Shown piece by piece: positions 34,990 through 47,719 of a stretch of DNA of 64,000 bases. This DNA comes from Granulicella sp. (GTDB lineage Bacteria > Acidobacteriota > Terriglobia > Terriglobales > Acidobacteriaceae). Within the stretch, counting starts at the first letter, position 1, and every line of letters starts with the position of its first letter. The translations under genes and the position numbers were made by a program. Under the pieces are notes generated by a model. That model was given only the letters and a program-made list of their open reading frames with translations. It was not told where the DNA came from and did no database searches. The stretch is taken from the NCBI GenBank assembly GCA_027339965.1, contig DAHWNL010000012.1, positions 1 through 64,000 of the forward strand, in the 5' to 3' direction.

Positions 34990-36132
34990 TCACTGTGTTC
35001 CCTCATTGACCAGGAAGTGAATCCGAAGTTCAAGATTCGGCCCATGGAACTGCCGCGGCAAAGGCGGGAACTGTCCCACTCCCGTAATCGAACCCCAAGC
35101 CGCGCGATTCAATGCATCATCGTGGCTCGAACCATCCAGATGCATCGCCGCAATCGTTCCATCCGGATTGATCGTGAAGCGGATCATCGTCATGCCACTC
35201 TTGTTCAAGGGCGGCTGCGTCTCTTCCGGCAGCAGCGGGATCCACTGCTCGTAGATCTCTTGAAGAATGCGCTGAATGTAAGGGTTGAAGTTCACTCCCT
35301 GGGTATCAGAGAGGATCTCCACGCCGCTCCCGGTCTGCGCTCCCCTAACGTTGCCGCTAATGCCCTGATTGCGATTCTGATTTGCACTCTGCGATCCCTG
35401 CATCGCCTGTTGCATCTGGTCTCGAGGCGTCTGCGGAATCAGGAAGCTCGGCCGTAGCGGCTGGGGAGTGGGAGCATTGGGCACCGGCTGGTTGGAGCGC
35501 TCTACTGGCTTGGGAGCCGAGGGCAGCGGCATCACCGGCTTCGATACCGGAGGAGCCGGGCGCATCGCTGCGGGCGGGGTTGGCTGTGGCGGAGCCGTGG
35601 CCTCCTTCTCCGGCGGAACCGGCGCCACGGGAGCCGGCGTTGCCGGCTTCGGCGCCGGCTTGGGCTCCATCGCCCGCAATCTGGCGATATCTCCGCGGCT
35701 GATCTTGGGTGGGGGACCAGGCGCGCGGTGCGGCAGGCGCGGCGCGTTCAACTCCACCTGCGCCTGTTGCTGCAGAGCTTCGGTAGGGGTAATCAGCTTG
35801 GGAGCGTGCCACAGATACTTGGGCCCATAGAACAGCACCCACGCGATCGCCAGCCAGATGAATAGGGAGATGTAGATCGACTCCCGGAATCGCGCCCGAT
35901 CACGCTCGTCCTCGATGCTGTCCAGCAGGTGAATCAGTTCGTGCTCTTCCAGTTCGCCGTAGCGGCTGGTGCGGACGCGCACCGGCGCGCTCACACTGCC
36001 CGCTGCCTCGTGGGGCACAACGGAGACAGCAGCGCCCCTTCCCAGAGGCACTTCCGGCTGGCCCTCCTGCGGTTTCTTCTGCGGCTGCGGGCTCGGCTGC
36101 TCTGGTTCGATCTGCGGGGGAGTGGTCGGCAT
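34990..36132 (-). CDS. TonB/TolA-family energy transducer
   Basis: Single TM, long Pro-rich linker, C-terminal IRFTINPDG..SSHDDALNRAAWGSI..FPPLP. Confidence 0.88.
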   Translation of the reverse strand: MPTTPPQIEPEQPSPQPQKKPQEGQPEVPLGRGAAVSVVPHEAAGSVSAPVRVRTSRYGELEEHELIHLLDSIEDERDRARFRESIYISLFIWLAIAWVLFYGPKYLWHAPKLITPTEALQQQAQVELNAPRLPHRAPGPPPKISRGDIARLRAMEPKPAPKPATPAPVAPVPPEKEATAPPQPTPPAAMRPAPPVSKPVMPLPSAPKPVERSNQPVPNAPTPQPLRPSFLIPQTPRDQMQQAMQGSQSANQNRNQGISGNVRGAQTGSGVEILSDTQGVNFNPYIQRILQEIYEQWIPLLPEETQPPLNKSGMTMIRFTINPDGTIAAMHLDGSSHDDALNRAAWGSITGVGQFPPLPRQFHGPNLELRIHFLVNEGTQ

Positions 36133-36349
36133 CGGATCTTGGTCAGTAACGAAAGTGCCCCCATCAAGATTGCACCGTCAGGGGCGGATCGCCGGACGGA
36201 AAATGGATGCTGGTCTCCTTAGTTTCTCATCTTTGCTCGATTCTGCCCATCTGAAATCAGCGGAGGCAGCAGGCGCCGCTGCCAGCCATCTCACCCCTCC
36301 ATGCTCGTTCCCGTCGCTCCTCCGCGCTTCCTTCTTCTATCTTAGAAGC

Positions 36350-36916
36350 ATGCCCCTCGCCACCCCTCTTGCCGGCCGAACCGCCGTGGTTCTCACGGTC
36401 AGCGACCGTTGCTTTGCCGGCGCCCGGACAGACCTCTCCGGTCCGGCCGTCGCGGAGATCCTCACTACATCCGGAGCCCGGCTGGTGGACACGCTCACCC
36501 TCCCCGACGAGCTTCCCCAACTCGTCGCCGCCCTTCGTCAGGCCGCCACCCGCGCCGCGCTGGTGCTCACCACCGGCGGCACCGGGTTGGGCCCGCGTGA
36601 CGTCACCCCGGAGGCCACCCTGGCCGTCTGTACCCGGCTGGTCCCCGGACTGGCCGAACTCATCCGCCAGCAGGGAGCACTCCGCACCCCCTACGCCGCC
36701 CTCAGCCGCGGCGTCTGCGGCATCGTCGATTCGCTGCCGGAAACCCCGGCTCCGGCAGCTCAGACGCGCGGCGCTCTGGTGCTTAACCTTCCCGGCAGTC
36801 CCGCAGGAGCCCGAGACTCACTGCGCGCGGTCCTTCCGCTCCTGCCGCATGCCTTGGATCTCGTCGCCGGACAGACGGAACATCCGGCCGAAGGCTCTCC
36901 CCTCGCGTCCGAGTAG
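36350..36916 (+). CDS. MogA/MoaB family molybdenum cofactor biosynthesis protein
   Basis: VLTVSDR, DLSGP, LTTGGTGLGPRDVTPEAT, LSRGVCG, NLPGSP. Confidence 0.93.
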   Translation: MPLATPLAGRTAVVLTVSDRCFAGARTDLSGPAVAEILTTSGARLVDTLTLPDELPQLVAALRQAATRAALVLTTGGTGLGPRDVTPEATLAVCTRLVPGLAELIRQQGALRTPYAALSRGVCGIVDSLPETPAPAAQTRGALVLNLPGSPAGARDSLRAVLPLLPHALDLVAGQTEHPAEGSPLASE

Positions 36917-37239: not shown

Positions 37240-37911
37240 GTGAAACCTGGACCCATCGCACTTGTGCATAAGCTCTCCACCGTCCTGTTGACCGTCCTGA
37301 AGCCTTTGGGCATCTGGGGTGTCGGTGGTCTGGCGTTGATCGACTCCGCGCTCTTCCCCATTCCGGTCTCCATGGACGGCGTCGTGATTGGGTACGTAGC
37401 CGCCAATCACCGCCTGTTTCTCGCCTACAGTCTGATGGCCGCCGCCGCCTCCACCCTGGGTTCGCTGGCTCCCTTCCTGATCGGCCGCGCCGGTGGAGAG
37501 TTCTTCCTACTGAAACGCATCAACCGCCGGCGCTACGAGAATATCCGGGATCGCTTCGAGCGTCAGGAGTTTCTGGCCATCATGATCCCGGCGATGCTTC
37601 CACCGCCCACCCCGCTCAAGCTCTTCGAGTTCTCCGCCGGAGTCTTTGAGATGCGGCCCGTCCTCTTTCTGCTGGCCATCTTCTGCGGAAAGTTCCTCCA
37701 GTTCCTCGCCTGCTCCCTGTTCACCCTCTGGTTCGGCCCGACGCTGATTCGCTCTCTGCGCGACCTCGGCCGAAACCACCACGACATCGTCGTCGGTATC
37801 GCTGCGGCAGCCGTCGCCGGGCTGATCTTTTACATCGTTCGCAGGGTCTTTGACAGCCGCAAGGGAGTCACCCTGCCCATTGAGGAAGAGGAGACGACTA
37901 CCGAACCCTGA
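37240..37911 (+). CDS. DedA/VTT (YqaA-like) membrane protein
   Basis: ALIDSALFPIP, ASTLGS..IGRAGG, PPPTPLKLF..AG hydrophobic pattern. Confidence 0.88.
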   Translation: MKPGPIALVHKLSTVLLTVLKPLGIWGVGGLALIDSALFPIPVSMDGVVIGYVAANHRLFLAYSLMAAAASTLGSLAPFLIGRAGGEFFLLKRINRRRYENIRDRFERQEFLAIMIPAMLPPPTPLKLFEFSAGVFEMRPVLFLLAIFCGKFLQFLACSLFTLWFGPTLIRSLRDLGRNHHDIVVGIAAAAVAGLIFYIVRRVFDSRKGVTLPIEEEETTTEP

Positions 37912-37941: not shown

Positions 37942-38493
37942 TTACGCCACGGGCTGCTGCGCCGCATGCATCATCTCCGCCAGCCGAGCAACCAGGACCG
38001 GAAGCCCAAAGAAGACGGCGGCGAACAGGCCCGTGGACAGCAGGTCATTCCCATAGAATGGCAGCGCAGCGGCGTAGCACGCCACCAGGCCGCTCAGCGT
38101 AGGCGGATACATCACCAGGTCCCCTCTGCCCGCCCAGACCATGAAGTTACTCAGCAGGAAGAAGCTGGTGGCGGAGGCCAAAACCCCGCAGGAGACGCGC
38201 AGCACCGTTGTCTTGCGCAACAGCGCACTGCCCAGAAGACAGACCGCCCCGTACCATGCCCAGGTGGCCAGGTACGCACTCACATGGAACGGATACCCAT
38301 AAATCCTGGTGGTGAGAATCACATCCATCAACCCCATCACCGCCACGGCAAGCACCGCCTGCCGGCGCGCCATACGAGAACCGAAGAACAGCAGCCCTGC
38401 GCCCACTGCCGTAAAGTTGAAGGGCAGGCTATGGAAGAAGTGGGGCAGAAGGCGGCTGAGCGCGGCGAGCACGAGAGTGAGAGTGGCGACCAT
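37942..38493 (-). CDS. DUF6580-like putative transporter component (membrane protein)
   Basis: SRLLPH..NFTAVGAGLLFFG, FFLLSNFMVW, MYPPTLSGLVACYAAALPF. Confidence 0.8.
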   Translation of the reverse strand: MVATLTLVLAALSRLLPHFFHSLPFNFTAVGAGLLFFGSRMARRQAVLAVAVMGLMDVILTTRIYGYPFHVSAYLATWAWYGAVCLLGSALLRKTTVLRVSCGVLASATSFFLLSNFMVWAGRGDLVMYPPTLSGLVACYAAALPFYGNDLLSTGLFAAVFFGLPVLVARLAEMMHAAQQPVA

Positions 38494-38703
38494 GGTCAAC
38501 AGGCCTTCGCGGTTGGAGTCGGCGGCGACGCTGCCGCGCCTCTTATTGTAGCCTGAACTTGCAGCCTGAGCGCTCGGCGCCCCGCCTGCGGCCAGCGCCC
38601 TCCAGGCTGAGCGAATCATGCTCCAAACCCGACTCGCGCGAAATGCCAGCGCCGCCGGGCTCTTACCCATCCCCCACCATCCGCCAAGCCGGCCGCCGGC
38701 GCC

Positions 38704-39945
38704 CTACCTCTCTGGCCGGCCGTCCAGGCTCTCCCTGAGCACATGATTGCCGGCGTCCAGCTCAACCACGCCCATCAACGGCGTCCGCTGCGCCTCAATC
38801 CCATCGCTGCCTGAGCCTACGCCGGAGATTCCAGAGTTGCCGAAGCCGGCGCCCATGAAGCGTGGATCACGAAAGGTGACCTCGGCGGCCACCGCATCCG
38901 CGCCACGCAGCTTCGCCGAGCCTGAGCCGGCGCTCAGCGATCCGACGTTCGGCCGGATCACCTGCACAAACGGCATCGGCGACCAGTCCATGTAGACCCT
39001 TCCCAACTTGCTCGCCTCCGCGGCCCGCACCGCGGGGCTCCCTCCCGGCTTCGCGTAGGAGGTTTCGCTCATCCGAATCGTACCGTTCAGCGTCTGGATC
39101 TCCGCCAGCTTGTACACCGGCCCAAAGTCCAGCACCGCCGACCAGCGGAAGGGGTTCACCATGGCCGGACTGACCAACGCCTGCTGCACTGGCAGCCAGA
39201 TCGGAACCGGTTGCCCCAGTGGAGATAGCCCCTCCGACGGTTCCTCGATGCTCTGCCTCATCGCCAACTGCATCGCCCGCCCATGCTCCACCGCGCGCAA
39301 CCCCCACCACGCGGCAACACCCACCAGGGCCGCAATCGCCCATCCGCGCCCTGGGAACGGCCGCCGCTTCACCCCCACCTCCGAACTCACCAGGCCAAAC
39401 AGCCAGGGAGCGACCAGAGCTGCCAGCAGCAGCGTAAAGATCACGGGATCGAAGATAAAGACGATCGAACCCGCATACCAGCGATCGTCAATGGGAAAGA
39501 ACGGACGAAGCCCGTAGTTGTTGGTGTAGTCCAGAAGCAGATGGCTCAGCAGCGCCACCAGGGCCAACAGGTACAGCACTCCCCAGCGGACCGGAGCCGC
39601 GGTCAATGGCCTGGCCGGAGCAGCTTCATCCTGCCCAGCCGCGAGTCGCAGAGGAATCGCCTCCGCCTTTGCCCTGGCCGTGGCAGCCGCTCGCCGCAGC
39701 CTCCAGCGATGCAGCCCATAGACCGCTGCAACAATCAGGGCTGCCTCAAAGGGCAGCCCCACAAATGTATGCGTGATCCCGCGATGATGTTGCAAGCTCT
39801 CTATGGGGCCGCGCAGAGCCCACAGCGTATCCACATCAGGAAACTCCGCAGCCACCACCATGGTCAGCGTGGCGTAGCCAGCCAGGCGATTGCATCCACT
39901 GCGTGAGAGACAGGCTCCGGTGAGAAGGTGCGTTACCGGATCCAT
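38704..39945 (-). CDS. Membrane-bound metal-dependent hydrolase (YdjM-like)
   Basis: MDPVTH, PDVD, HRGITH, SHLLLDYTNNYG motifs. Confidence 0.9.
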   Translation of the reverse strand: MDPVTHLLTGACLSRSGCNRLAGYATLTMVVAAEFPDVDTLWALRGPIESLQHHRGITHTFVGLPFEAALIVAAVYGLHRWRLRRAAATARAKAEAIPLRLAAGQDEAAPARPLTAAPVRWGVLYLLALVALLSHLLLDYTNNYGLRPFFPIDDRWYAGSIVFIFDPVIFTLLLAALVAPWLFGLVSSEVGVKRRPFPGRGWAIAALVGVAAWWGLRAVEHGRAMQLAMRQSIEEPSEGLSPLGQPVPIWLPVQQALVSPAMVNPFRWSAVLDFGPVYKLAEIQTLNGTIRMSETSYAKPGGSPAVRAAEASKLGRVYMDWSPMPFVQVIRPNVGSLSAGSGSAKLRGADAVAAEVTFRDPRFMGAGFGNSGISGVGSGSDGIEAQRTPLMGVVELDAGNHVLRESLDGRPER

Positions 39946-39946
39946 C

Positions 39947-40933
39947 TCATCGCAGCGAGCTGCCCGTCAACGCCATGGGAGAAAAGCTCATCGGCCGGCT
40001 TGCAGCCTCAGCCAACTCCGCCTCGCGTTCGGCCTCGATCGCACGCTCCAACTCACGCTCCCGCATGTGCTGGGAACCGGCCGCAATTGCCGCCATCTCT
40101 GCCGGAGCCAGCATACCCGGCTTGAAGCCGGCAATCGCCACAACCCCAGGAGCATCGCCCAGCGCCTCCGAGATGCGGTTCCACAGGAAGTACGGCGAAG
40201 TCGTCGGGAGCAGAACCATCTTTGGTGTCGGCTCTGGGAGAGCAAAGTAGCCACCCCAGACCAACGCAGCGACGCAGTAGCTCGAACAAAAAAACGTGTA
40301 AATGGGGTCATACACTGAATGCACAGCACCCCGAGCAACCCACGCCGACTCGACCAGGCTCGCCGTGGCCCACACTCCGAGTCCCAGAGCGACGCCAAAG
40401 GTGCGGCTTCGATACGTAAGGCCCAGATAGCGGGTGGAGAAGCAGACAAAGAGCAGGAGGCAGAGGACAAGGACACAGACTCCCTGCTGCAACTGACCAA
40501 ATGCCTGAGCCATCCAACTCCCGTTTGAAGCATGGAATCCCATCGTGAAGGCTGCGGAGACAACCACCGAAACCCCTCCCACCCAGCGGAAGACCACCTT
40601 TCCAGCGCGATGCAGCCCCTCCAGCGGCCTCATCGCCTCGCGGAAAACACCATAGATGAGGAACACGAGGAGCGCAAGCTGGACGGCGAGGAGAACCCAC
40701 TCCGAATAAAAGTAGATGTCGTAGGCTTGGTAGACACTGATTCCAAAGAGGTACCGTCGGAAAAAAAGGATGGCGACCGCGACCGCGTCAGCGGCACCAT
40801 TCGCGACGATAAACGCTGCCAGGAAGGGAAACGAGCGCAACAACCGCTGGCGCTTCATCACCAGCAGCACCCCAACCGCCAGGATGAGGTCAGCGAAGAG
40901 GGAGTACTCCAGCAGCAGCTTGGTGGTAGTCAT
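39947..40933 (-). CDS. Hypothetical 7-TM membrane protein with soluble C-terminal tail
   Basis: SD GGAGG; seven hydrophobic segments, then PEPTPKMVLLPTTSPYFLWNRISEALG and a charged helix. Confidence 0.85.
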   Translation of the reverse strand: MTTTKLLLEYSLFADLILAVGVLLVMKRQRLLRSFPFLAAFIVANGAADAVAVAILFFRRYLFGISVYQAYDIYFYSEWVLLAVQLALLVFLIYGVFREAMRPLEGLHRAGKVVFRWVGGVSVVVSAAFTMGFHASNGSWMAQAFGQLQQGVCVLVLCLLLFVCFSTRYLGLTYRSRTFGVALGLGVWATASLVESAWVARGAVHSVYDPIYTFFCSSYCVAALVWGGYFALPEPTPKMVLLPTTSPYFLWNRISEALGDAPGVVAIAGFKPGMLAPAEMAAIAAGSQHMRERELERAIEAEREAELAEAASRPMSFSPMALTGSSLR

Positions 40934-41039
40934 GACGAACGCCTCCAGCGCACGATAGAGATATCGTACACAGGAGGCGCAGCCTTTGCACCAAATTATT
41001 TTCTAACTCCCACCGAAATCTTGCTCGACATTTCCCGTT

Positions 41040-41213
41040 TTAGTCCAAGCCACAGGTGCTGCCAGGATCACACGCAGGCGAGACCACACCCGGGTGCGCG
41101 ACGAAGACCTTCGCCTGATTCGCACGGGCCATGGAAGCCGAGTACATGGAGGAGGCGCTGAAACCAGCGAGGGCGAGGGCGACGACGAATGCACGGATGG
41201 CGAGGGTCTTCAT
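41040..41213 (-). CDS. Unannotated 57-aa secreted peptide with C-terminal Cys-x5-Cys
   Basis: SD AAGGAG; MKTLAIRAFVVALALAGFSASSMYSASMARANQAKVFVAHPGVVSPACDPGSTCGLD*. Confidence 0.8.
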   Translation of the reverse strand: MKTLAIRAFVVALALAGFSASSMYSASMARANQAKVFVAHPGVVSPACDPGSTCGLD

Positions 41214-41240
41214 ATGCGTATTTCTCCTTGGCGGTATCGT

Positions 41241-41397
41241 TTATTACTAGATCTCTAAAATTTTTCTCTGGACAACCCAGATGTAACCAACATAGACTGG
41301 TAAAATTAAGAAGTCTATTCATATCAACTACATAACTAATTACTATTTAGTAAATATTACTAAAGTAATTAAGAAAATTAATTGAGTTACTGTTACT
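41241..41397. promoter_or_regulatory. Very AT-rich regulatory region with inverted repeats
   Basis: TTTAGTAA-ATA-TTACTAAA (41346-41364), ATAGACT-N13-AGTCTAT (41292-41318), several TTACT/AGTAA half-sites. Confidence 0.7.
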
Positions 41398-41698
41398 GCT
41401 CGTGGCTCCGGCCCACCCTCCTCAACAAAGTTCCTCGATCCCAGCGCCCCAACTCCTGCGCGCCATCCGCTGCTCCTAACCCATCCGCTGCACACGGATT
41501 CAAGCCACCGACCCTGCTCCCTCTCTACGCATGCCGCTGCACACCCCACCTCGAATCGCCAGCCCCCGCGCATGGATCGGCTCTTCTCCGCATCCGCCCA
41601 TCCCAAAACGGGAGGCCCCGGATCGCGAGGCCCAGAGGCTCGAATTCAAACATCGCGAATCTCACGATCATGTATCCCAAAAGCAGGAGCCTTAAGCG

Positions 41699-44683
41699 AT
41701 GGCCAGGATTCCGCCCAGCTACTCCCCGGCCTCCAGCTCCTCGGAGCGCAGCGACCGCGAGCTGCTCGCTCGCATCCAACGCTCTGCCGGCGGCAAGGCC
41801 GGGTACAAGCAACTCATCCGCGAGCTCGGACTCGGGGGTGGCCGGGAGCGGCGGCTCTTGCTGGAGCAGCTTGCCCGCCTGGTGGCGCGCGGTGAACTCA
41901 CCTTTTCAGACGACCGAATGTGGTCGATTCCTCCACCAGAGACAACCGCTCCTCCAACCACTGAAGATCTGCCGCCCACCAGCCAAAGCCGCTCAGAGAC
42001 AGCCGGGGCAGCAGGCCGCTCCGGCCGCGACCGGCTGCTGACCGGACGCCTGGATCTGCACCGCGAGGGCTACGGCTTCGTCCGCCCAAACCGCGGTCCA
42101 AGCCGCGGCCCAGCCGGTGCCATCGCCGAAGACCTCTTTATCCCTCCTCACGCCCTCAACGGCGCCATGCAGGGCGACCTGGTTCTGGTCGAGCAGGAGC
42201 TCGCCGGCCGCAGCGTTGGCCGCATTCTGCGCGTGCTCACCCGGCAGAACCCCACCATCGTCGGCGTGTTTCACTCCCAAGACCGCGACCGTTCACGGCG
42301 CTTGCCGCGCCAGGAACCACTGCACAGCGACTTCGTCACCCCATGGGATGAGCGCATGGGCGGACCCATTCTCATCACAGCCGGCGACGCCATCCCTCCA
42401 GCCGCCTCAAACGCAATCTCCGGCAACCGCGCCTCGCCTCACCGCCTCCTCGGCGAGCCGGCGCGCCAGGAGCTTGCCGCCGCTCGCGGGACAGACCGGC
42501 TGCACCCCCTGGAGGGTTTGGTGGTGGACGTCGAGATCCTCAGCTTCCCCACCCTCGGCCGGCCGGCGCGGGGACGCGTCATCGAGGTGCTCGGTCCGCC
42601 GGACGGCTTCGGCGTCGATGTGGAGATCGTGATCCGGAAACACCAGATCCCCCACAGGTTTCCAACGCTGGTGCTGGAGGAGGCTGAGGACCGGGCGCTG
42701 GAGCAGGCTGCTGCGCTGGATCCGCTCGCTCCGCCGGATCCAACCGCTACGCCGGGCCCTGCGCCGCTCCACGCCCGGGAGGACTTTCGCGCTCTGCCCA
42801 TCGTCACCATCGACGTCGAGAGCGCCCGCGACTTCGATGATGCGGTGCTCGTGCGCCGCCTACCCAACGGAAACGATGAGTTGCAGGTGCATATTGCCGA
42901 TGTGAGCTGGTACGTCCGGTCAGGTTCCGCGCTGGATACCGAGGCCAGGTTCCGTGGAACCAGCGTCTACTTCCCGGATCGCGCCATTCCCATGTTGCCC
43001 CATGCACTCTCCAGCGGCATCTGCAGCCTGCTCCCCGGCCAGGACAGGCTGGTGCTGAGCTGCATCATGGAGATCGATTCGGAGGGTGAGATTGCCGGCT
43101 ATCGACTGGCCGAAGGCATCATCCGCAGCCGGCGGCGGATGACCTACACCAGCGTGCAGCACTGCCTGAACGCCGCCAACCATCTGGACCAGATCCATCC
43201 GGACCAGCGGGACGCCTCTTCGCCACAGCGAAGACCCGCCACGCCAGGATCCGCGTCTGACGCCGGCTCCGGCGAGGCCCAGCCTGGCACTCCTCCGCCG
43301 AGTGCAGAAGATATCGCTGAGCGCGAACGGATCGGCCTTGAGCATCCCGAGCTTCCATCCGCCTTCGATGCGATGCTTCGCCTGGCGCTGCGGCTGAACG
43401 CCAAGCGGGTACGGCGCGGCTCCATCGACTTCGATCTGCCGGAGCCGGTCGTGGAGTTTGACCCCGATGGCAACATGAAGGCGATTGTGCGCTCGGAGCG
43501 CGGGTGGGCGCACCGCCTGATCGAAGAGTTCATGCTCTCCGCCAACGAGTGTGTGGCCCACTGGCTGGAGGGCCGGGGACTGAACCGCCCCGGCGTACCC
43601 TCCCTCTATCGCATCCATGAGACGCCGGACCCCAAAAAGATCGTCGAATTCGAGGAGACAGCCGCGGCGTTCGGGCACTCTCTGGGCATTGGCAGCCTGC
43701 CCGTGCGGACGGTCACCCTGAAGGCGGATCGCAGGGAGCTGCGCCAGCGCGCTGCCCAGGGGAGGAACTCCGCAAGGCCCCACACCTACGAGATCCCCGC
43801 GAGCATTCCCGTCACCCCGCAGATGTACCAGGATCTGCTCCGCCGCATCCGCGCAACGCCGGAGGAGCGCATCCTCTCTTACCTGATGCTGCGCTCGCTG
43901 AAACAGGCGCGCTATGCGGAGAAGAATCAAGGTCACTTCGCCCTGGCCTCGCCCTGCTATACGCACTTCACCTCACCCATACGGCGCTATCCGGATCTTG
44001 TGGTGCACCGGCTGGTGCGCGCGATGCTCCGCCAGGGAACGGACCCGCGCGGAGCTCCGATTCGCAGCGACGACTTGCAGCCATGGCAAGCGGCGTGGAA
44101 AGCACGAACCAGCGCCACTCCGGCTGCCCGCGCCTCCATGCGAGAGCAGACCAACGCTCAGATCCAGCTGGCCCCCGGACCCATCGCCGCCGAAGAGCTG
44201 AACGACATCGCCATCGAAAGCTCGCAGGCTGAGCGCCGAGCCGCCGAAGCGGAGCGCGAGCTGATCGAGTGGAAGAAGATGAAGTTCATGGCCGATAAGA
44301 TCGGCGATGACTTCCCAGCCGTCATCCTCTCCGTAACCCGGCATGGCTTCTTCGTGGAGCTTGACGGCCTGTTCATCGAGGGGATGGTTCCGATCGGATC
44401 TCTGACCGGCGACCATTACACCTATCGTGATACGGATCGCACCATTGTGGGAGCGCGCACCGGCCATGTCTTCACCATCGGCCAGCCTGTGCAGGTGCTG
44501 CTGGATCGCATCGATCGCCAGCAGCGCCGTCTGCAGTTTGCGCTGTTGCCCGGAACAGAGCCAGGGGTGCTGACCGCCGCGCAGGGACGCGGCGGCAAGA
44601 GCGAGGCAAAGAAGGCCAAGGCGAAGGAAAAGACCAACGCCGGAAGGACCGGAGCCAAGGCAAAACGGCGCAAAGCCCGTTGA
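41699..44683 (+). CDS. rnr: Ribonuclease R (RNB domain exoribonuclease)
   Basis: N-terminal HTH, GYGFV cold-shock domain, TIDVESARDFDDA, HIADVS, LIEEFML, YTHFTSPIRRYPDL, S1 domain, Lys-rich tail. Confidence 0.94.
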   Translation: MARIPPSYSPASSSSERSDRELLARIQRSAGGKAGYKQLIRELGLGGGRERRLLLEQLARLVARGELTFSDDRMWSIPPPETTAPPTTEDLPPTSQSRSETAGAAGRSGRDRLLTGRLDLHREGYGFVRPNRGPSRGPAGAIAEDLFIPPHALNGAMQGDLVLVEQELAGRSVGRILRVLTRQNPTIVGVFHSQDRDRSRRLPRQEPLHSDFVTPWDERMGGPILITAGDAIPPAASNAISGNRASPHRLLGEPARQELAAARGTDRLHPLEGLVVDVEILSFPTLGRPARGRVIEVLGPPDGFGVDVEIVIRKHQIPHRFPTLVLEEAEDRALEQAAALDPLAPPDPTATPGPAPLHAREDFRALPIVTIDVESARDFDDAVLVRRLPNGNDELQVHIADVSWYVRSGSALDTEARFRGTSVYFPDRAIPMLPHALSSGICSLLPGQDRLVLSCIMEIDSEGEIAGYRLAEGIIRSRRRMTYTSVQHCLNAANHLDQIHPDQRDASSPQRRPATPGSASDAGSGEAQPGTPPPSAEDIAERERIGLEHPELPSAFDAMLRLALRLNAKRVRRGSIDFDLPEPVVEFDPDGNMKAIVRSERGWAHRLIEEFMLSANECVAHWLEGRGLNRPGVPSLYRIHETPDPKKIVEFEETAAAFGHSLGIGSLPVRTVTLKADRRELRQRAAQGRNSARPHTYEIPASIPVTPQMYQDLLRRIRATPEERILSYLMLRSLKQARYAEKNQGHFALASPCYTHFTSPIRRYPDLVVHRLVRAMLRQGTDPRGAPIRSDDLQPWQAAWKARTSATPAARASMREQTNAQIQLAPGPIAAEELNDIAIESSQAERRAAEAERELIEWKKMKFMADKIGDDFPAVILSVTRHGFFVELDGLFIEGMVPIGSLTGDHYTYRDTDRTIVGARTGHVFTIGQPVQVLLDRIDRQQRRLQFALLPGTEPGVLTAAQGRGGKSEAKKAKAKEKTNAGRTGAKAKRRKAR

Positions 44684-44848: not shown

Positions 44849-47719
44849 CTAAAAACTGAACTTGCAGCGCAGGGTTACGGTACGGTTGGCGGAGGTGCTC
44901 ACGCCACTTACCGAGAGAGGCGAATTCAGCGAGATCGACTGCCCGAAGTAGGGTGAGCTAAGAACGCCCACCGGAGTTCCCGGGTTGTTACGGTTCAGAA
45001 GATTGTAGGCGTCCACCCCAAAGCTCAAACTGTAAGGACGGTCTGGCCTCTTCGCCGAACCCTTTCCGCCCGAACCATGGGCCGGCCGAGGACCGATCTT
45101 GAACTCCTTTTCCAGATGAGCCTCCAGAAAGAAGAAGTTCGGCGAGTTTCCATAGTTGATCGGTATCGTCTTCTCTCCCGGCTGCGGGTTCGCATCAAAG
45201 TTTCCGAAGGGAGTTCGGTAGAGGATTGAGTTTGCCGTCGGGCTGGTGGAAAACGCAGGACGATCGTTATAGATCGTGTCTCCATTCAGATCGGTGCCCG
45301 TGGTGATGTTGAAGGGAGTGCCGCCTGCCACATTGGCGAAGAGAAATCCGCTGAAACCAAGCGGAAACTTCATATTGACGTCCGCAAAGGTCTGCTGCGT
45401 CGGCTGAGCCGCGCGGCCATAATCCTGGGTCAGATCGTACTGATTGGAGGGAAAGGTCGTTGCGCCTCCAACATCCTGATCAACATGATTGAAGCTGTAG
45501 GCCACAAACCCGTTGATGCGCTTGCTGAACTGGAACTGGGAGTTCACGAAGAGAATCTCCGCTTTCTGGATTCCGCCAGAATCAAACTGATAGATGTTCT
45601 GCGTGCCCCCCAACGGTCGAACGCCACTGGAGGGATCGGCAGGATTGTAGGTTCCGGGTAGTGGCGCGTTGATGTTGCGCGAGAGCCATTGATGAACCCC
45701 GCGCATGAAGTAGTATTCCACCGAGAGGCTCCCGATCTTGCCCAGAGAGCGCTCCGCCGTCAGCCCGCCGACGATGTCGTACTCATTGCGCAGATGCGGG
45801 TTGATGTTGTACAGCGTCGGCGGCGTGGTTCCCAGCAGCGACGCCGGCGGCGGCGTGTTCAAGTACTGCTGATAGAAGTTTGGGTTCTCGACGTAGTAGG
45901 AGGTCTGGTAGGTTCCGCTCTGTTCACGGATCGCCGTCAGGATGTTGGCGGAGTCAAACCGGTCATAGAAGAAACCGCCCCCGCCGCGCAGCATCAGCAG
46001 CGCGTGGCGGTGGTTGTTCTGTCCCACGGCCCAGGCGAACCCCATCCGCGGCGCCGGATCAGCGTGGTCCGGAACCGCCGACTGGCTCTCGAAGCGAAAC
46101 CCCAAGTCCACAGTCATATTCCTGCGAATCTTCCACTCGTCCTCCGCAAAGACGCCCAGATCGCCCATCAGCAGCGACGCCTCCGCTTTCCCGGTCGTGA
46201 GGTTGTATTGGATCGTCTCGCCCGTGCCGGCGAAGATCTGCGCGGGAGTTTCGCCCTGCAGCGCCAGCGCGTAGGCCTTCTCATCCGGAAACATGTACAG
46301 ACCGTTATAACCCGTACGGTCTTCATTGGAACGATCCAGCAGGCGATACCGTCCCCCGAAACGCAGATAGTGCGCTCCGTGTTGACTCGTGAGAAGCTCC
46401 TGGAACTCGTAGCGATCTTGATTGTCCACCAGCTCCTGCGCCGGCGATCCACCGGCATTGAACAGTCCCTGGGCCACGATCGAAGCCTCCGTGCTGGCCG
46501 GCGACTGGTTCTCATGCACGCGGGCGAACTGAAAGTGCGCTTCGGAGATGGTGGAGACACCGATGATCTGCGTATCGATGAGCTGCAAGGTGTTGGTGCT
46601 CGTTGTGGAGTTCAACCCCTCGGATGGAAGCACCAGCAATCCGACTCCGCTATTGGTCACCGTCACTGCGTTGTACTCATAGCGGCCCATGAAGGTGTTG
46701 TTCTTCGTCACTCGACGATTGATCTGTCCACTGTAGGTCTGCGTCACGCTCGGCGAACGAACGGCCTCATCCAAAGGCGTGAGAAGCTCCGGATTGATGG
46801 CGTCCACAATCGCGTTGTTCTGCAGATCGTAGTACGCCCCACTGAGAAAGAAGGACGTGTTCCTATTCATCGAGCCGCTGAGGTTCGCATCCAGATTCAC
46901 CGTGTAGTACGGCGGCTCTACCGTTGTGTACGGGTTCTGGGCGTTGAACACATTGTCCGTACCCCAACTGCTCAGCTCTCCGTGCAACTTGCCGCCTCCG
47001 GGCTTGGTGTCAATCTCCACCCTCCCGAAGCCCAGCGAATCGTACTCGGCCGAGTATGGGTTCTGATTGATTCGAATCTCCTGGATCGTGTTCTTGGGTG
47101 GAAAACGACCGTTCGAAAAGCCGTTCACCAGAATCTCCGGAGCTCTCAATCCCTCCCCGCCCGCCAGCGCCTTGATCTCCTGTTGAAACACATCCTCATC
47201 GTCGGAGAACCCGTTCAACTGGCTCCCCTTGAATCGAAGCGCACTCATGTTATCGGTGGCAGCGGTGCTCTCTGCCCTTTGGGCCGGAACCGTGATCTCC
47301 TCGGCTCGCGTGGCAATCTCCAGACGAACATGGATGCCGGCGGCCGGCGACCCCTTGCTCAACTTGATGCCGGCCTTGTACTCCCGGAAGCCGGGCGCTT
47401 CGATGGCGATGCGATAGACCCCGAGGGGAAGAGCCAGATCGAACTCGCCGATTCCATTCGTCCTCACCTCGCGATGCAGGGTTCGGCCAGAGACGCGGAC
47501 CCTGGCGTGAGCAATCTTGGCGCCGGAAGGGTCTGCAACGCTTCCTCTCACGTGGCCGACGAACGCGCTTCCTTGCGCGTCGACAAAGTCCCACGGCCCT
47601 GCGCCGGCGCCGTTCCCCGCCACCGTTGCATAGCATTCTCCAGGGAATACCGCCCAGCCAATGAACAGCGCACAACCGGCCCACCAGAGGTTCCTCATCC
47701 AGAACCAGCGAAAGATCAC
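44849..47719 (-). CDS. TonB-dependent receptor-like outer-membrane beta-barrel with carboxypeptidase regulatory-like domain
   Basis: GSVADPSGAKI, EIRINQNPYSAEYD..GRVEIDTKPG, amphipathic strands, terminal Phe. Confidence 0.88.
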   Translation of the reverse strand: MIFRWFWMRNLWWAGCALFIGWAVFPGECYATVAGNGAGAGPWDFVDAQGSAFVGHVRGSVADPSGAKIAHARVRVSGRTLHREVRTNGIGEFDLALPLGVYRIAIEAPGFREYKAGIKLSKGSPAAGIHVRLEIATRAEEITVPAQRAESTAATDNMSALRFKGSQLNGFSDDEDVFQQEIKALAGGEGLRAPEILVNGFSNGRFPPKNTIQEIRINQNPYSAEYDSLGFGRVEIDTKPGGGKLHGELSSWGTDNVFNAQNPYTTVEPPYYTVNLDANLSGSMNRNTSFFLSGAYYDLQNNAIVDAINPELLTPLDEAVRSPSVTQTYSGQINRRVTKNNTFMGRYEYNAVTVTNSGVGLLVLPSEGLNSTTSTNTLQLIDTQIIGVSTISEAHFQFARVHENQSPASTEASIVAQGLFNAGGSPAQELVDNQDRYEFQELLTSQHGAHYLRFGGRYRLLDRSNEDRTGYNGLYMFPDEKAYALALQGETPAQIFAGTGETIQYNLTTGKAEASLLMGDLGVFAEDEWKIRRNMTVDLGFRFESQSAVPDHADPAPRMGFAWAVGQNNHRHALLMLRGGGGFFYDRFDSANILTAIREQSGTYQTSYYVENPNFYQQYLNTPPPASLLGTTPPTLYNINPHLRNEYDIVGGLTAERSLGKIGSLSVEYYFMRGVHQWLSRNINAPLPGTYNPADPSSGVRPLGGTQNIYQFDSGGIQKAEILFVNSQFQFSKRINGFVAYSFNHVDQDVGGATTFPSNQYDLTQDYGRAAQPTQQTFADVNMKFPLGFSGFLFANVAGGTPFNITTGTDLNGDTIYNDRPAFSTSPTANSILYRTPFGNFDANPQPGEKTIPINYGNSPNFFFLEAHLEKEFKIGPRPAHGSGGKGSAKRPDRPYSLSFGVDAYNLLNRNNPGTPVGVLSSPYFGQSISLNSPLSVSGVSTSANRTVTLRCKFSF

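Follow-up and report, generated by a model that had tools for sequence, protein, structure and literature searches.

The stretch of DNA analysed here, referred to as the window, comprises positions 1 to 64,000 of contig DAHWNL010000012.1 of Granulicella sp. (assembly GCA_027339965.1), a member of the Acidobacteriaceae. Our subject is a pair of co-oriented genes on its minus strand: an open reading frame (ORF) of 57 amino acids and, after a spacer of 106 nt, an ORF of 328 amino acids encoding a protein with seven transmembrane helices (7TM; Table 1). Each gene is present in one copy in the 3.8-Mb genome. Acidobacteriaceae are among the most abundant soil bacteria, and knowledge of how they perceive their environment or one another is very scant. 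The initial annotation, made from the letters of the window, had reported the small ORF with a Shine-Dalgarno (SD) sequence AAGGAG, a signal sequence and two cysteines that could close a 7-residue ring, followed 106 nt on by the larger ORF, and had proposed that the two genes encode a peptide ligand and its receptor. All of these coordinates and features hold, and the proposal is weighed below.

The small ORF had been described as missed by the ORF track. This is true of the track of the window and not of public records, in which its relatives are called as proteins: a large protein database holds 361 members of the peptide family, including entries from Granulicella, Edaphobacter and Acidobacteriaceae, and among 120 listed relatives the named ones are 'hypothetical protein' or UniRef 'Uncharacterized protein', apart from one with the JGI label 'FliL'. 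As the ORF is short, uncalled in the track and located in an AT-rich region of intergenic appearance, it could be regarded as a chance open frame in the 5' leader of the 7TM gene, the latter being the only real gene. The comparative data refute this reading, which we consider practically untenable. Loci of the closest 7TM relatives (class I) were collected from 45 other genomes of the same family, two of them without upstream DNA, which left 43 informative loci. The scan upstream of the 7TM homologues that the initial annotation had suggested found a co-oriented signal-peptide ORF of 45-68 aa in 40 of these 43, ending 50-210 nt before the 7TM start and carrying a tail of the form P-x-P-x-C-x(3-8)-C. 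The start codon and the SD are conserved, with SD-like purine-rich runs before the peptide start in other loci too. Among close orthologues and tandem copies the ratio of nonsynonymous to synonymous differences (pN/pS) is 0.04-0.5, two of the comparisons giving 18 synonymous versus 2 nonsynonymous and 21 versus 7 changes, which shows that the peptide is conserved under purifying selection. In addition, a peptide profile searched against 201 genomes of the family gave 55 matches at E ≤ 1.8e-5, of which 48 are situated no more than about 400 nt from a 7TM match; the remaining seven are at contig ends or have unlisted coordinates, and none is clearly away from a 7TM gene. The 57-aa ORF is a real gene.

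The 40 aligned peptides follow a common plan: M-K-x-x-V-R, a hydrophobic core, small residues, an S/T/A-rich spacer and a P-x-P-x-C-x(n)-C tail, with K2, R7, P44, P46, C48 and C54 near-invariant. The motif P-x-C is found in 36 of the peptides and C-x(n)-C-G in 25, and 39 have at least two cysteines in the tail; the spacing between the cysteines is 7 in 23 peptides, 6 in six, 5 in three and 4 in four. In the product of the window, C48 and C54 have five residues between them and would form a 7-residue ring if closed. The loop C-P-P-S-D-P-N-G-C is found again in several genera; the sharing of loops by different genera and the purifying selection make kin recognition, one of the roles first proposed for the pair, unlikely. 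Read by eye from the alignment, the N-terminal parts have the marks of Sec signals cleaved by signal peptidase I, namely a positive n-region, a hydrophobic core and small residues at -3 and -1. The hydrophobic run is mostly 13-17 residues long (up to 22 in five rows) and is followed by small residues, and because of this short core and the small residues at the predicted cut site cleavage is likelier than membrane anchoring. The predicted mature peptides are neither cationic nor amphipathic by eye. A disulphide bond in the periplasm is plausible because the host genome encodes VKOR and three DsbA-like thioredoxin-fold proteins. Two to three tandem peptide copies are present in six genomes of the class-I set and in two more genomes of the 201-genome peptide scan, and old tandem copies have been retained (pS 0.07-0.46). 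For the peptide, no match above cut-off was obtained in Pfam, NCBIfam or PADLOC, and its profile gave nothing meaningful against PDB sequences. NCBIfam echoes (MTB12, MarB, CwrA, PatX and BufA2; E 0.001-0.04) were rejected as signal-peptide-driven and far short of the cut-offs.

The seven hydrophobic segments and the soluble tail that had been read from the sequence of the 328-aa protein are borne out by an AlphaFold2 model based on a 33-row alignment, with a predicted local distance difference test score (pLDDT) of 84.5 and a predicted template modelling score of 0.75. In the model, seven transmembrane (TM) helices are accompanied by a small beta pair, and TM7 is followed by a short helix and a long C-terminal one. 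Both the model and the positive-inside counts over the 33 sequences place the N-terminus outside and the C-terminus inside: lysine and arginine counts assign an inside position to loops 1 and 5 and to the segment that follows TM7, loops predicted inside having 3.3, 1.85 and 2.1 such residues per loop and those predicted outside 0.45, 0.42 and 0.55. In conservation, the cytoplasmic loops score 0.67 and 0.74 and the proximal tail 0.63, whereas the periplasm-facing extracellular-type loops ECL2 and ECL3 score 0.35 and 0.37, and the cytoplasmic halves of the TM helices reach 0.565 versus 0.44 for the periplasmic ones. The earlier statement that no catalytic motif is recognisable also stands: the invariant residues are G106, W117, G180, W226 and W251, none of which looks catalytic, and the membrane core has no conserved polar or charged residues. 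The membrane protein might have turned out to belong to a known transporter or enzyme family, an outcome that the initial annotation had named as contrary to its proposal; no such match was found in Pfam, NCBIfam or PADLOC, including a Pfam scan of the 33 aligned members at E ≤ 1. Foldseek gave no match in the PDB at E ≤ 0.001; its best rows were G-protein-coupled receptors (GPCRs) at E 0.03-0.2, and the top 50 structural neighbours of the model were all GPCRs or GPCR-like designs. A search of the 7TM profile against PDB sequences returned JNK kinases at E 0.011, which was dismissed as chance level. Profile searching yielded 1655 7TM representatives at E ≤ 0.001, and in the ESM Atlas the peptide and the 7TM protein alike matched only unnamed Acidobacteriota clusters.

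Two further paralogous 7TM classes occur in the same family, each with Cys-loop peptide genes of its own. In 9 of 9 loci of class II proteins (about 300-310 aa, with their own C-terminal tail), a peptide gene of the same type follows downstream at a distance of 250-330 nt, and one of these loci holds three peptide copies; at two further loci of class-II-like length the peptide gene is upstream. Class III proteins are about 250 aa long. In 14 of 14 loci their gene is preceded by a signal-peptide ORF, for which GTG is a frequent start codon, and in 12 this ORF encodes a short mature part that starts with D-G-G-P and contains a Cys pair. Peptides of classes II and III have a classical A-x-A followed by a D-G-G junction. 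Since linkage is held in three paralogous classes of differing gene order, the pair has duplicated and diverged together, and no other argument for a joint function of peptide and 7TM protein is as strong as this.

Two further checks proposed at the outset, co-variation and complex prediction, point the same way. In partial Mantel tests (24 pairs, 5000 permutations), the mature peptide tracks the periplasmic half of the 7TM protein given the cytoplasmic half (r 0.38, p 0.0002), the reverse test gives r 0.02 and p 0.38, and the signal-peptide part shows no such bias (partial r 0.13 and 0.22); shared ancestry inflates tests of this kind, and parts that evolve fast tend to correlate with one another. 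Complex prediction gave a score of 0.35 (runs 0.35, 0.36 and 0.26) against 0.00 for the best of three controls, with the runs agreeing in at least 71% of contacts and a partner pLDDT of at least 60, and this was graded as weak support. Of 157 solved complexes 116 attained the mark, as did 2 of 215 mismatched pairs; scores of 0.60 or lower include only 18 of those 157 solved complexes plus both mismatches that passed, and a pass in this weak band is likelier to be false than true if the prior is not high. Taken together, these results support the view that peptide and 7TM protein are cognate partners inherited together, and to this extent the ligand-receptor proposal is supported. Its other part, quorum sensing, is unproven, as only a Sec signal is evident, the host is diderm and no exporter is linked.

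At three loci, L093, L094 and L100, the upstream signal-peptide ORF is without a Cys loop and has three to four tandem proline-rich repeats instead; one of the three comes from another family of the same taxonomic class (G545). The class III 7TM genes of loci L087-L097, in other genomes, lie in a four-gene cluster composed of a divergent gene of about 140 aa, the peptide gene, the 7TM gene and a gene for a protein of about 180 aa. The divergent gene product has the N-terminus M-T-L-K-S-A-L-E-D-L and a motif H-W-G-L, and the gene faces the peptide gene across a TTTCCGAAA-type palindrome. The protein of about 180 aa consists of one TM helix and a helical bundle, and its start overlaps the 7TM stop codon; its model (pLDDT 89.2) had no PDB fold match better than E 0.36. 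Neither protein has a Pfam family or a homologue in the genome of the window, and the two genes were rejected as a clue to the output of the system, since neither explains the class-I pair of the window.

The region in front of the peptide gene has the appearance of a dedicated promoter. The 200 nt 5' of the gene are AT-rich (GC 0.33 versus 0.62 for the locus); in the window the AT-rich island extends over 41230-41420, with a GC of about 0.33 in a 0.61 GC genome. The exact palindrome TTAC-N4-GTAA is present in 18 of 28 class-I loci, 125-155 nt 5' of the first peptide gene and always 50-52 nt before the -35-like element, with 0 matches in the remaining 97,327 nt of the same loci, and it is absent from class II and III loci bar two stray sites. 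The whole 3.8-Mb genome has seven TTAC-N4-GTAA sites, one of which, on contig C47 at about position 103610, is intergenic, and two sites of the extended form RTTAC-N4-GTAAY. The second extended site (contig C33) lies inside a metallophosphoesterase-like ORF and was judged to be a chance match. In 20 of 28 loci the motif [AT][TAG]GAC[TG]T precedes the peptide ATG at -77 to -104; by eye, it is followed after 16-17 nt by TATACT, TATGGT or TAAGGT as the -10-like element in other loci. The short leader hairpin was likewise seen by eye in loci of genera g1 and g59. Should the -10 assignment be correct, the palindrome would be centred near -82, a position of the kind used by upstream activators.

A second regulatory element separates the two genes. 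The 131-nt stretch 41050-40920, which contains the intergenic hairpin, folds with a minimum free energy of -50.1 kcal/mol and a z-score of -4.71, and 0 of 200 shuffled sequences fold as well; in 16 of 23 loci the intergenic region reaches a z-score below -2, although the sequences are unrelated. On average, the predicted probability of pairing in the SD zone amounts to 0.78 in the 7TM gene versus 0.53 in the peptide gene, with the higher value in the 7TM gene at 19 of 23 loci, while the SD zone of the peptide gene in the window is mostly unpaired by prediction (0.28). An intrinsic terminator was considered and rejected, as no T-run follows the hairpin and the terminator scan made no call; Rfam had no family at gathering score in the window and ten loci. 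Given a hairpin over the SD of the 7TM gene and tandem copies of the peptide gene, the peptide is expected to be made in far larger amounts than the receptor.

A 7TM match of any class was found in 185 of 201 family genomes, a tally that includes three genomes flagged unpublished; 16 genomes had no match and many hold 2-6. Across the phylum, 33 of 401 genomes match, consisting of G000, 30 of 33 other genomes of the family and two weak hits among 367 genomes outside it. In 11 of 19 wider loci the pair has gyrB on one side and rplU/rpmA on the other; it adjoins RNase R and YdjM in the genus of the window and lies beside other housekeeping genes in one further genus. The locus is core, syntenic and vertically inherited, not patchy or mobile. 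In agreement with the earlier remark that no AgrB, histidine kinase or TPR regulator is adjacent, none of these is conserved beside the pair, and the Pfam scan of 114 flanking ORFs from the 19 loci revealed no conserved kinase, regulator, transporter, ABC exporter or peptide-modifying enzyme; response-regulator genes in the flanks of two loci of one genus are not kept elsewhere.

This setting bears on the alternative already named in the initial annotation, in which the Sec-exported disulphide peptide would be antimicrobial or self-toxic and the 7TM protein a membrane immunity protein, perhaps also a sensor. In bacteriocin-immunity cassettes a small signal-peptide gene is followed by a membrane protein gene in one transcript, and tandem multi-copy peptide genes and cysteine pairs are common in bacteriocins. 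The gene order of our pair matches this layout, tandem peptide genes and the cysteine pair are present, many genomes contain extra 7TM paralogues, and the outer face of the 7TM protein is variable. SdpI is a precedent for a polytopic immunity protein and receptor in one (PMC2910880). However, a core, syntenic locus and a 7TM superfamily that is nearly family-wide do not resemble such cassettes, the peptides are under purifying selection with identical loops across genera, and the paralogues examined keep their own peptide gene (bar three exceptions), without orphan immunity genes. No exporter for crossing the outer membrane is linked in the scanned flanking ORFs, the mature peptides lack a cationic or amphipathic character, and no bacteriocin, immunity, Abi/CAAX or SdpI match was obtained in Pfam, NCBIfam or PADLOC. 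The toxin/immunity pair is still the main rival, one that is weakened by its core, vertically inherited setting and that we judge distinctly unlikely.

In a partnership without signalling, the peptide would be an abundant periplasmic accessory factor, substrate or redox-sensitive regulator of a 7TM protein whose actual role is another one, such as envelope homeostasis, transport or anchoring. The linkage, the co-variation and the weak support from complex prediction are explained just as well by any physical partnership. MgrB, which acts on PhoQ, is an example of a small protein modulating a membrane protein. Such a role would suit a housekeeping-like, vertically inherited locus among core genes with no signalling output domain present, as well as the neighbouring membrane proteins, namely the class-III membrane-anchored helical protein, whose gene overlaps the 7TM stop codon, and the YdjM-family (PF04307) inner-membrane protein, whose gene starts 1 nt past the 7TM stop codon in the window. 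The YdjM gene follows the 7TM gene only in the genus of the window (L006/L065, L084), for which reason it was rejected as a member of the module; there it is probably co-transcribed with the 7TM gene, outside the conserved module. On the other side, the membrane core, with only glycine and tryptophan invariants, offers no conserved polar or charged residues for transport or catalysis, the large peptide excess expected from tandem copies and a masked 7TM SD misfits a 1:1 structural subunit, the signal-like N-terminus is likely cleaved and not a membrane anchor, and the most conserved surface of the 7TM protein is cytoplasmic, away from the peptide. We regard this explanation as unlikely, if a serious competitor.

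The remaining neighbours of the pair are listed in Table 1. The public DNA runs that contain positions 39900-41500 (20 rows from 10 studies) carry the labels of metagenomes from mine drainage, mine tailings, sediment and wastewater, with no RNA run listed.

Table 1. Positions of the elements of the peptide/7TM locus and of neighbouring genes, numbered along the window.
Feature	Position	Strand	Remarks
Palindromic operator (putative) TTAC-N4-GTAA, TTACTTTAGTAA	41357..41368		about 155 nt before peptide ATG; with flanks ATTACTTTAGTAAT at 41356-41369
-35-like TAGACT	41312..41317	-	window's version of conserved wTGGACTTA; putative promoter element
-10-like TATGTT	41289..41294	-	17 nt after -35-like element; putative
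5'-leader hairpin CTGG-N5-CCAG	41268..41280	-	directly after -10-like element; by eye
SD AAGGAG of peptide gene	41224..41229	-	10 nt 5' of ATG
Peptide ORF, 57 aa, MKTLAIRAFVVALALAGFSASSMYSASMARANQAKVFVAHPGVVSPACDPGSTCGLD	41040..41213	-	stop codon 41042-41040
Signal-peptide part, residues 1-21, MKTLAIRAFVVALALAGFSA	41151..41213	-	cleavage after FSA, predicted by eye
Predicted mature peptide, residues 22-57	41043..41150	-	S/T/A-rich spacer, then Cys loop
Cys loop P-A-C-D-P-G-S-T-C-G	codons 41078-41049	-	within predicted mature peptide
Intergenic RNA hairpin, about 19 pairs	40939..40980	-	3' arm holds 7TM SD GGAGG (40946-40942)
7TM membrane protein, 328 aa	39947..40933	-	AlphaFold2 model; no family match
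YdjM-family inner-membrane protein	38704-39945	-	PF04307
DUF6580 membrane protein	37942-38670	-	next after YdjM gene; Pfam
VTT/DedA-domain protein	37240-37911	+	Pfam
Molybdopterin-binding MoCF_biosynth protein	35969-36916	+	Pfam
TonB-C protein, long proline-rich region	34990-36132	-	Pfam
RNase R (RNB, CSD2, S1)	41699-44683	+	divergent, upstream of pair; Pfam
CarboxypepD_reg and outer-membrane beta-barrel protein	44849-47719	-	Pfam

From these results, a hypothesis regarding the function of the pair may be put forward, to which we assign a probability of roughly 0.45: the two genes constitute a lineage-specific module composed of a periplasmic peptide and its cognate 7TM receptor. Transcription of the small gene would proceed from a strong dedicated promoter under the control of the TTAC-N4-GTAA operator, and the peptide would be translated efficiently, exported by the Sec pathway and freed of its signal peptide, after which its two cysteines would be oxidised in the periplasm to give a proline-rich disulphide loop. 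The 7TM gene, on the same transcript, would be translated sparingly, its ribosome-binding site being buried in the hairpin, and the peptide would consequently be in large excess over the membrane protein, an excess that the two to three tandem peptide genes of some relatives would reinforce. On the 7TM bundle, the mature peptide may bind to the variable side exposed to the periplasm, where an aromatic stretch conserved at the outer end of TM3 is a candidate site for the conserved P-x-P-x-C part. Binding would then be relayed to the conserved cytoplasmic face, formed by intracellular loops ICL2 and ICL3 and the post-TM7 helix with its invariant tryptophan, and this face would engage a cytoplasmic partner, with feedback on the operator as a possible consequence.

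Several observations weigh against the peptide-receptor hypothesis. No output component (kinase, transcription factor or cyclase) is conserved beside the pair in the flanking ORFs, and for this reason the term 'signalling' rests on pattern only. A peptide with a Sec signal alone would end in the periplasm of a diderm cell, which argues against classical cell-to-cell signalling. The class-I-like 7TM genes of G061 (L031/L081), G062 (L032/L053) and G121 (L056) have no detected peptide gene in up to 12.8 kb of DNA; loss, relocation or a very divergent peptide could account for this. Single-Cys peptide variants (L018, L025) and the two of the 14 class-III peptides that consist of Cys-free proline-rich repeats without a Cys loop show that the disulphide is not universal in the module. 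To these are added the effect of shared ancestry on the Mantel tests and the weak band of the complex score.

The peptide-receptor hypothesis may be extended to a signalling system of the Acidobacteriaceae in which GPCR-like stand-alone receptors, each with its own genetically encoded, Sec-exported, proline-rich peptide with a disulphide loop, form up to three orthogonal pairs per genome with operators of their own and hairpin-limited receptor synthesis and would signal to partners by way of the conserved cytoplasmic platform, as a convergent or distant counterpart of peptide-GPCR signalling; this extension is tentative and, as a whole, somewhat doubtful. No description of such a peptide/7TM pair turned up in full-text literature searches, judged by their hit listings. 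The module is near family-wide in this group of soil and acid-habitat bacteria and is vertically inherited, and neither of its two proteins has a known relative. Were the 7TM protein to be a peptide receptor, it would represent a third route of peptide sensing in bacteria beside membrane kinases and cytoplasmic RRNPP receptors, and the peptide would be a rare genetically encoded peptide ligand in a diderm bacterium. The pair could then also provide a simple orthogonal set of ligand, receptor and operator for synthetic biology, and a test case for GPCR-like bundles arising in bacteria. With only a peptide, a receptor, an operator and a hairpin as its parts, the module lends itself to direct tests of this question.

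No peptide-sensing or bacteriocin system described so far has this architecture, and the function of the module is one that we infer. In the agr system a small cyclised (thiolactone) peptide is encoded beside the gene of its sensor, the components being AgrD, AgrB and AgrC. Our pair shares with agr and RRNPP systems a small encoded peptide next to a putative sensor gene and possible autoregulation of the peptide operon. It differs from agr in having neither an AgrB-type protease nor a histidine kinase among the neighbours in the window and the flanking ORFs, and in a plain Sec signal and a predicted disulphide ring in place of a thiolactone; it differs from RRNPP systems in that no cytoplasmic TPR regulator is found in the flanks and the conserved partner is a 7TM membrane protein. 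Unlike in Gram-positive quorum sensing, the peptides are conserved across genera and not split into pherotypes. Bufferin-type RiPPs (ribosomally synthesised and post-translationally modified peptides) are made as small Sec-signal Cys precursors that act in the diderm periplasm. Our peptides are similar precursors, but a BufA2 match was obtained for only one of the 40 peptides (E 0.038, far short of the cut-off), and no MNIO/DUF692-type enzyme is encoded by the window neighbours or the flanking ORFs.

With GPCRs, the 7TM protein shares, according to its model, seven TM helices and an N-out/C-in topology. In contrast to them, the 33 members have no 7tm Pfam match and no sequence similarity, the Foldseek E-values are not significant, and DRY, CWxP or NPxxY-type motifs are not conserved in the 7TM alignment as read by eye. 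Bacteria are not known to have G proteins. The likeness to GPCRs is a resemblance of the modelled fold that does not imply kinship.

A known system of similar logic is SdpC/SdpI/SdpR of Bacillus subtilis, in which the extracellular peptide SdpC binds the polytopic SdpI, which then sequesters a cytoplasmic repressor without a kinase (PMC2910880); peptides can thus be sensed with no two-component kinase involved. The same source presents SdpI, with a basic unit of six transmembrane segments, as both immunity protein and receptor in an operon with an SdpR/ArsR-type autorepressor (PMC2910880). On this description, Sdp and the proposed pair have in common a secreted peptide ligand and a kinase-less membrane protein with an outer part for the ligand and an inner part engaging a regulator, whereas the modelled bundle of our protein has seven TM helices and is GPCR-like. 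Neither an SdpR/ArsR-type regulator nor sdpAB-type maturation genes were found in the scanned flanking ORFs of our pair, and its diderm host and core, family-wide locus contrast with an accessory cannibalism operon. The Pfam scan of the 33 members at E ≤ 1 gave no SdpI-family match, although Pfam includes a model of SdpI. Finally, the two-gene layout, the Cys pairs and the multiple precursor copies are common to our pair and the cassettes of class II Sec-dependent bacteriocins. The pair is set apart from them by the lack of a family match and of an outer-membrane route, by its core syntenic locus and the purifying selection on the peptide, and by the nature of the partner, a 7TM protein of large size whose cytoplasmic platform is conserved.

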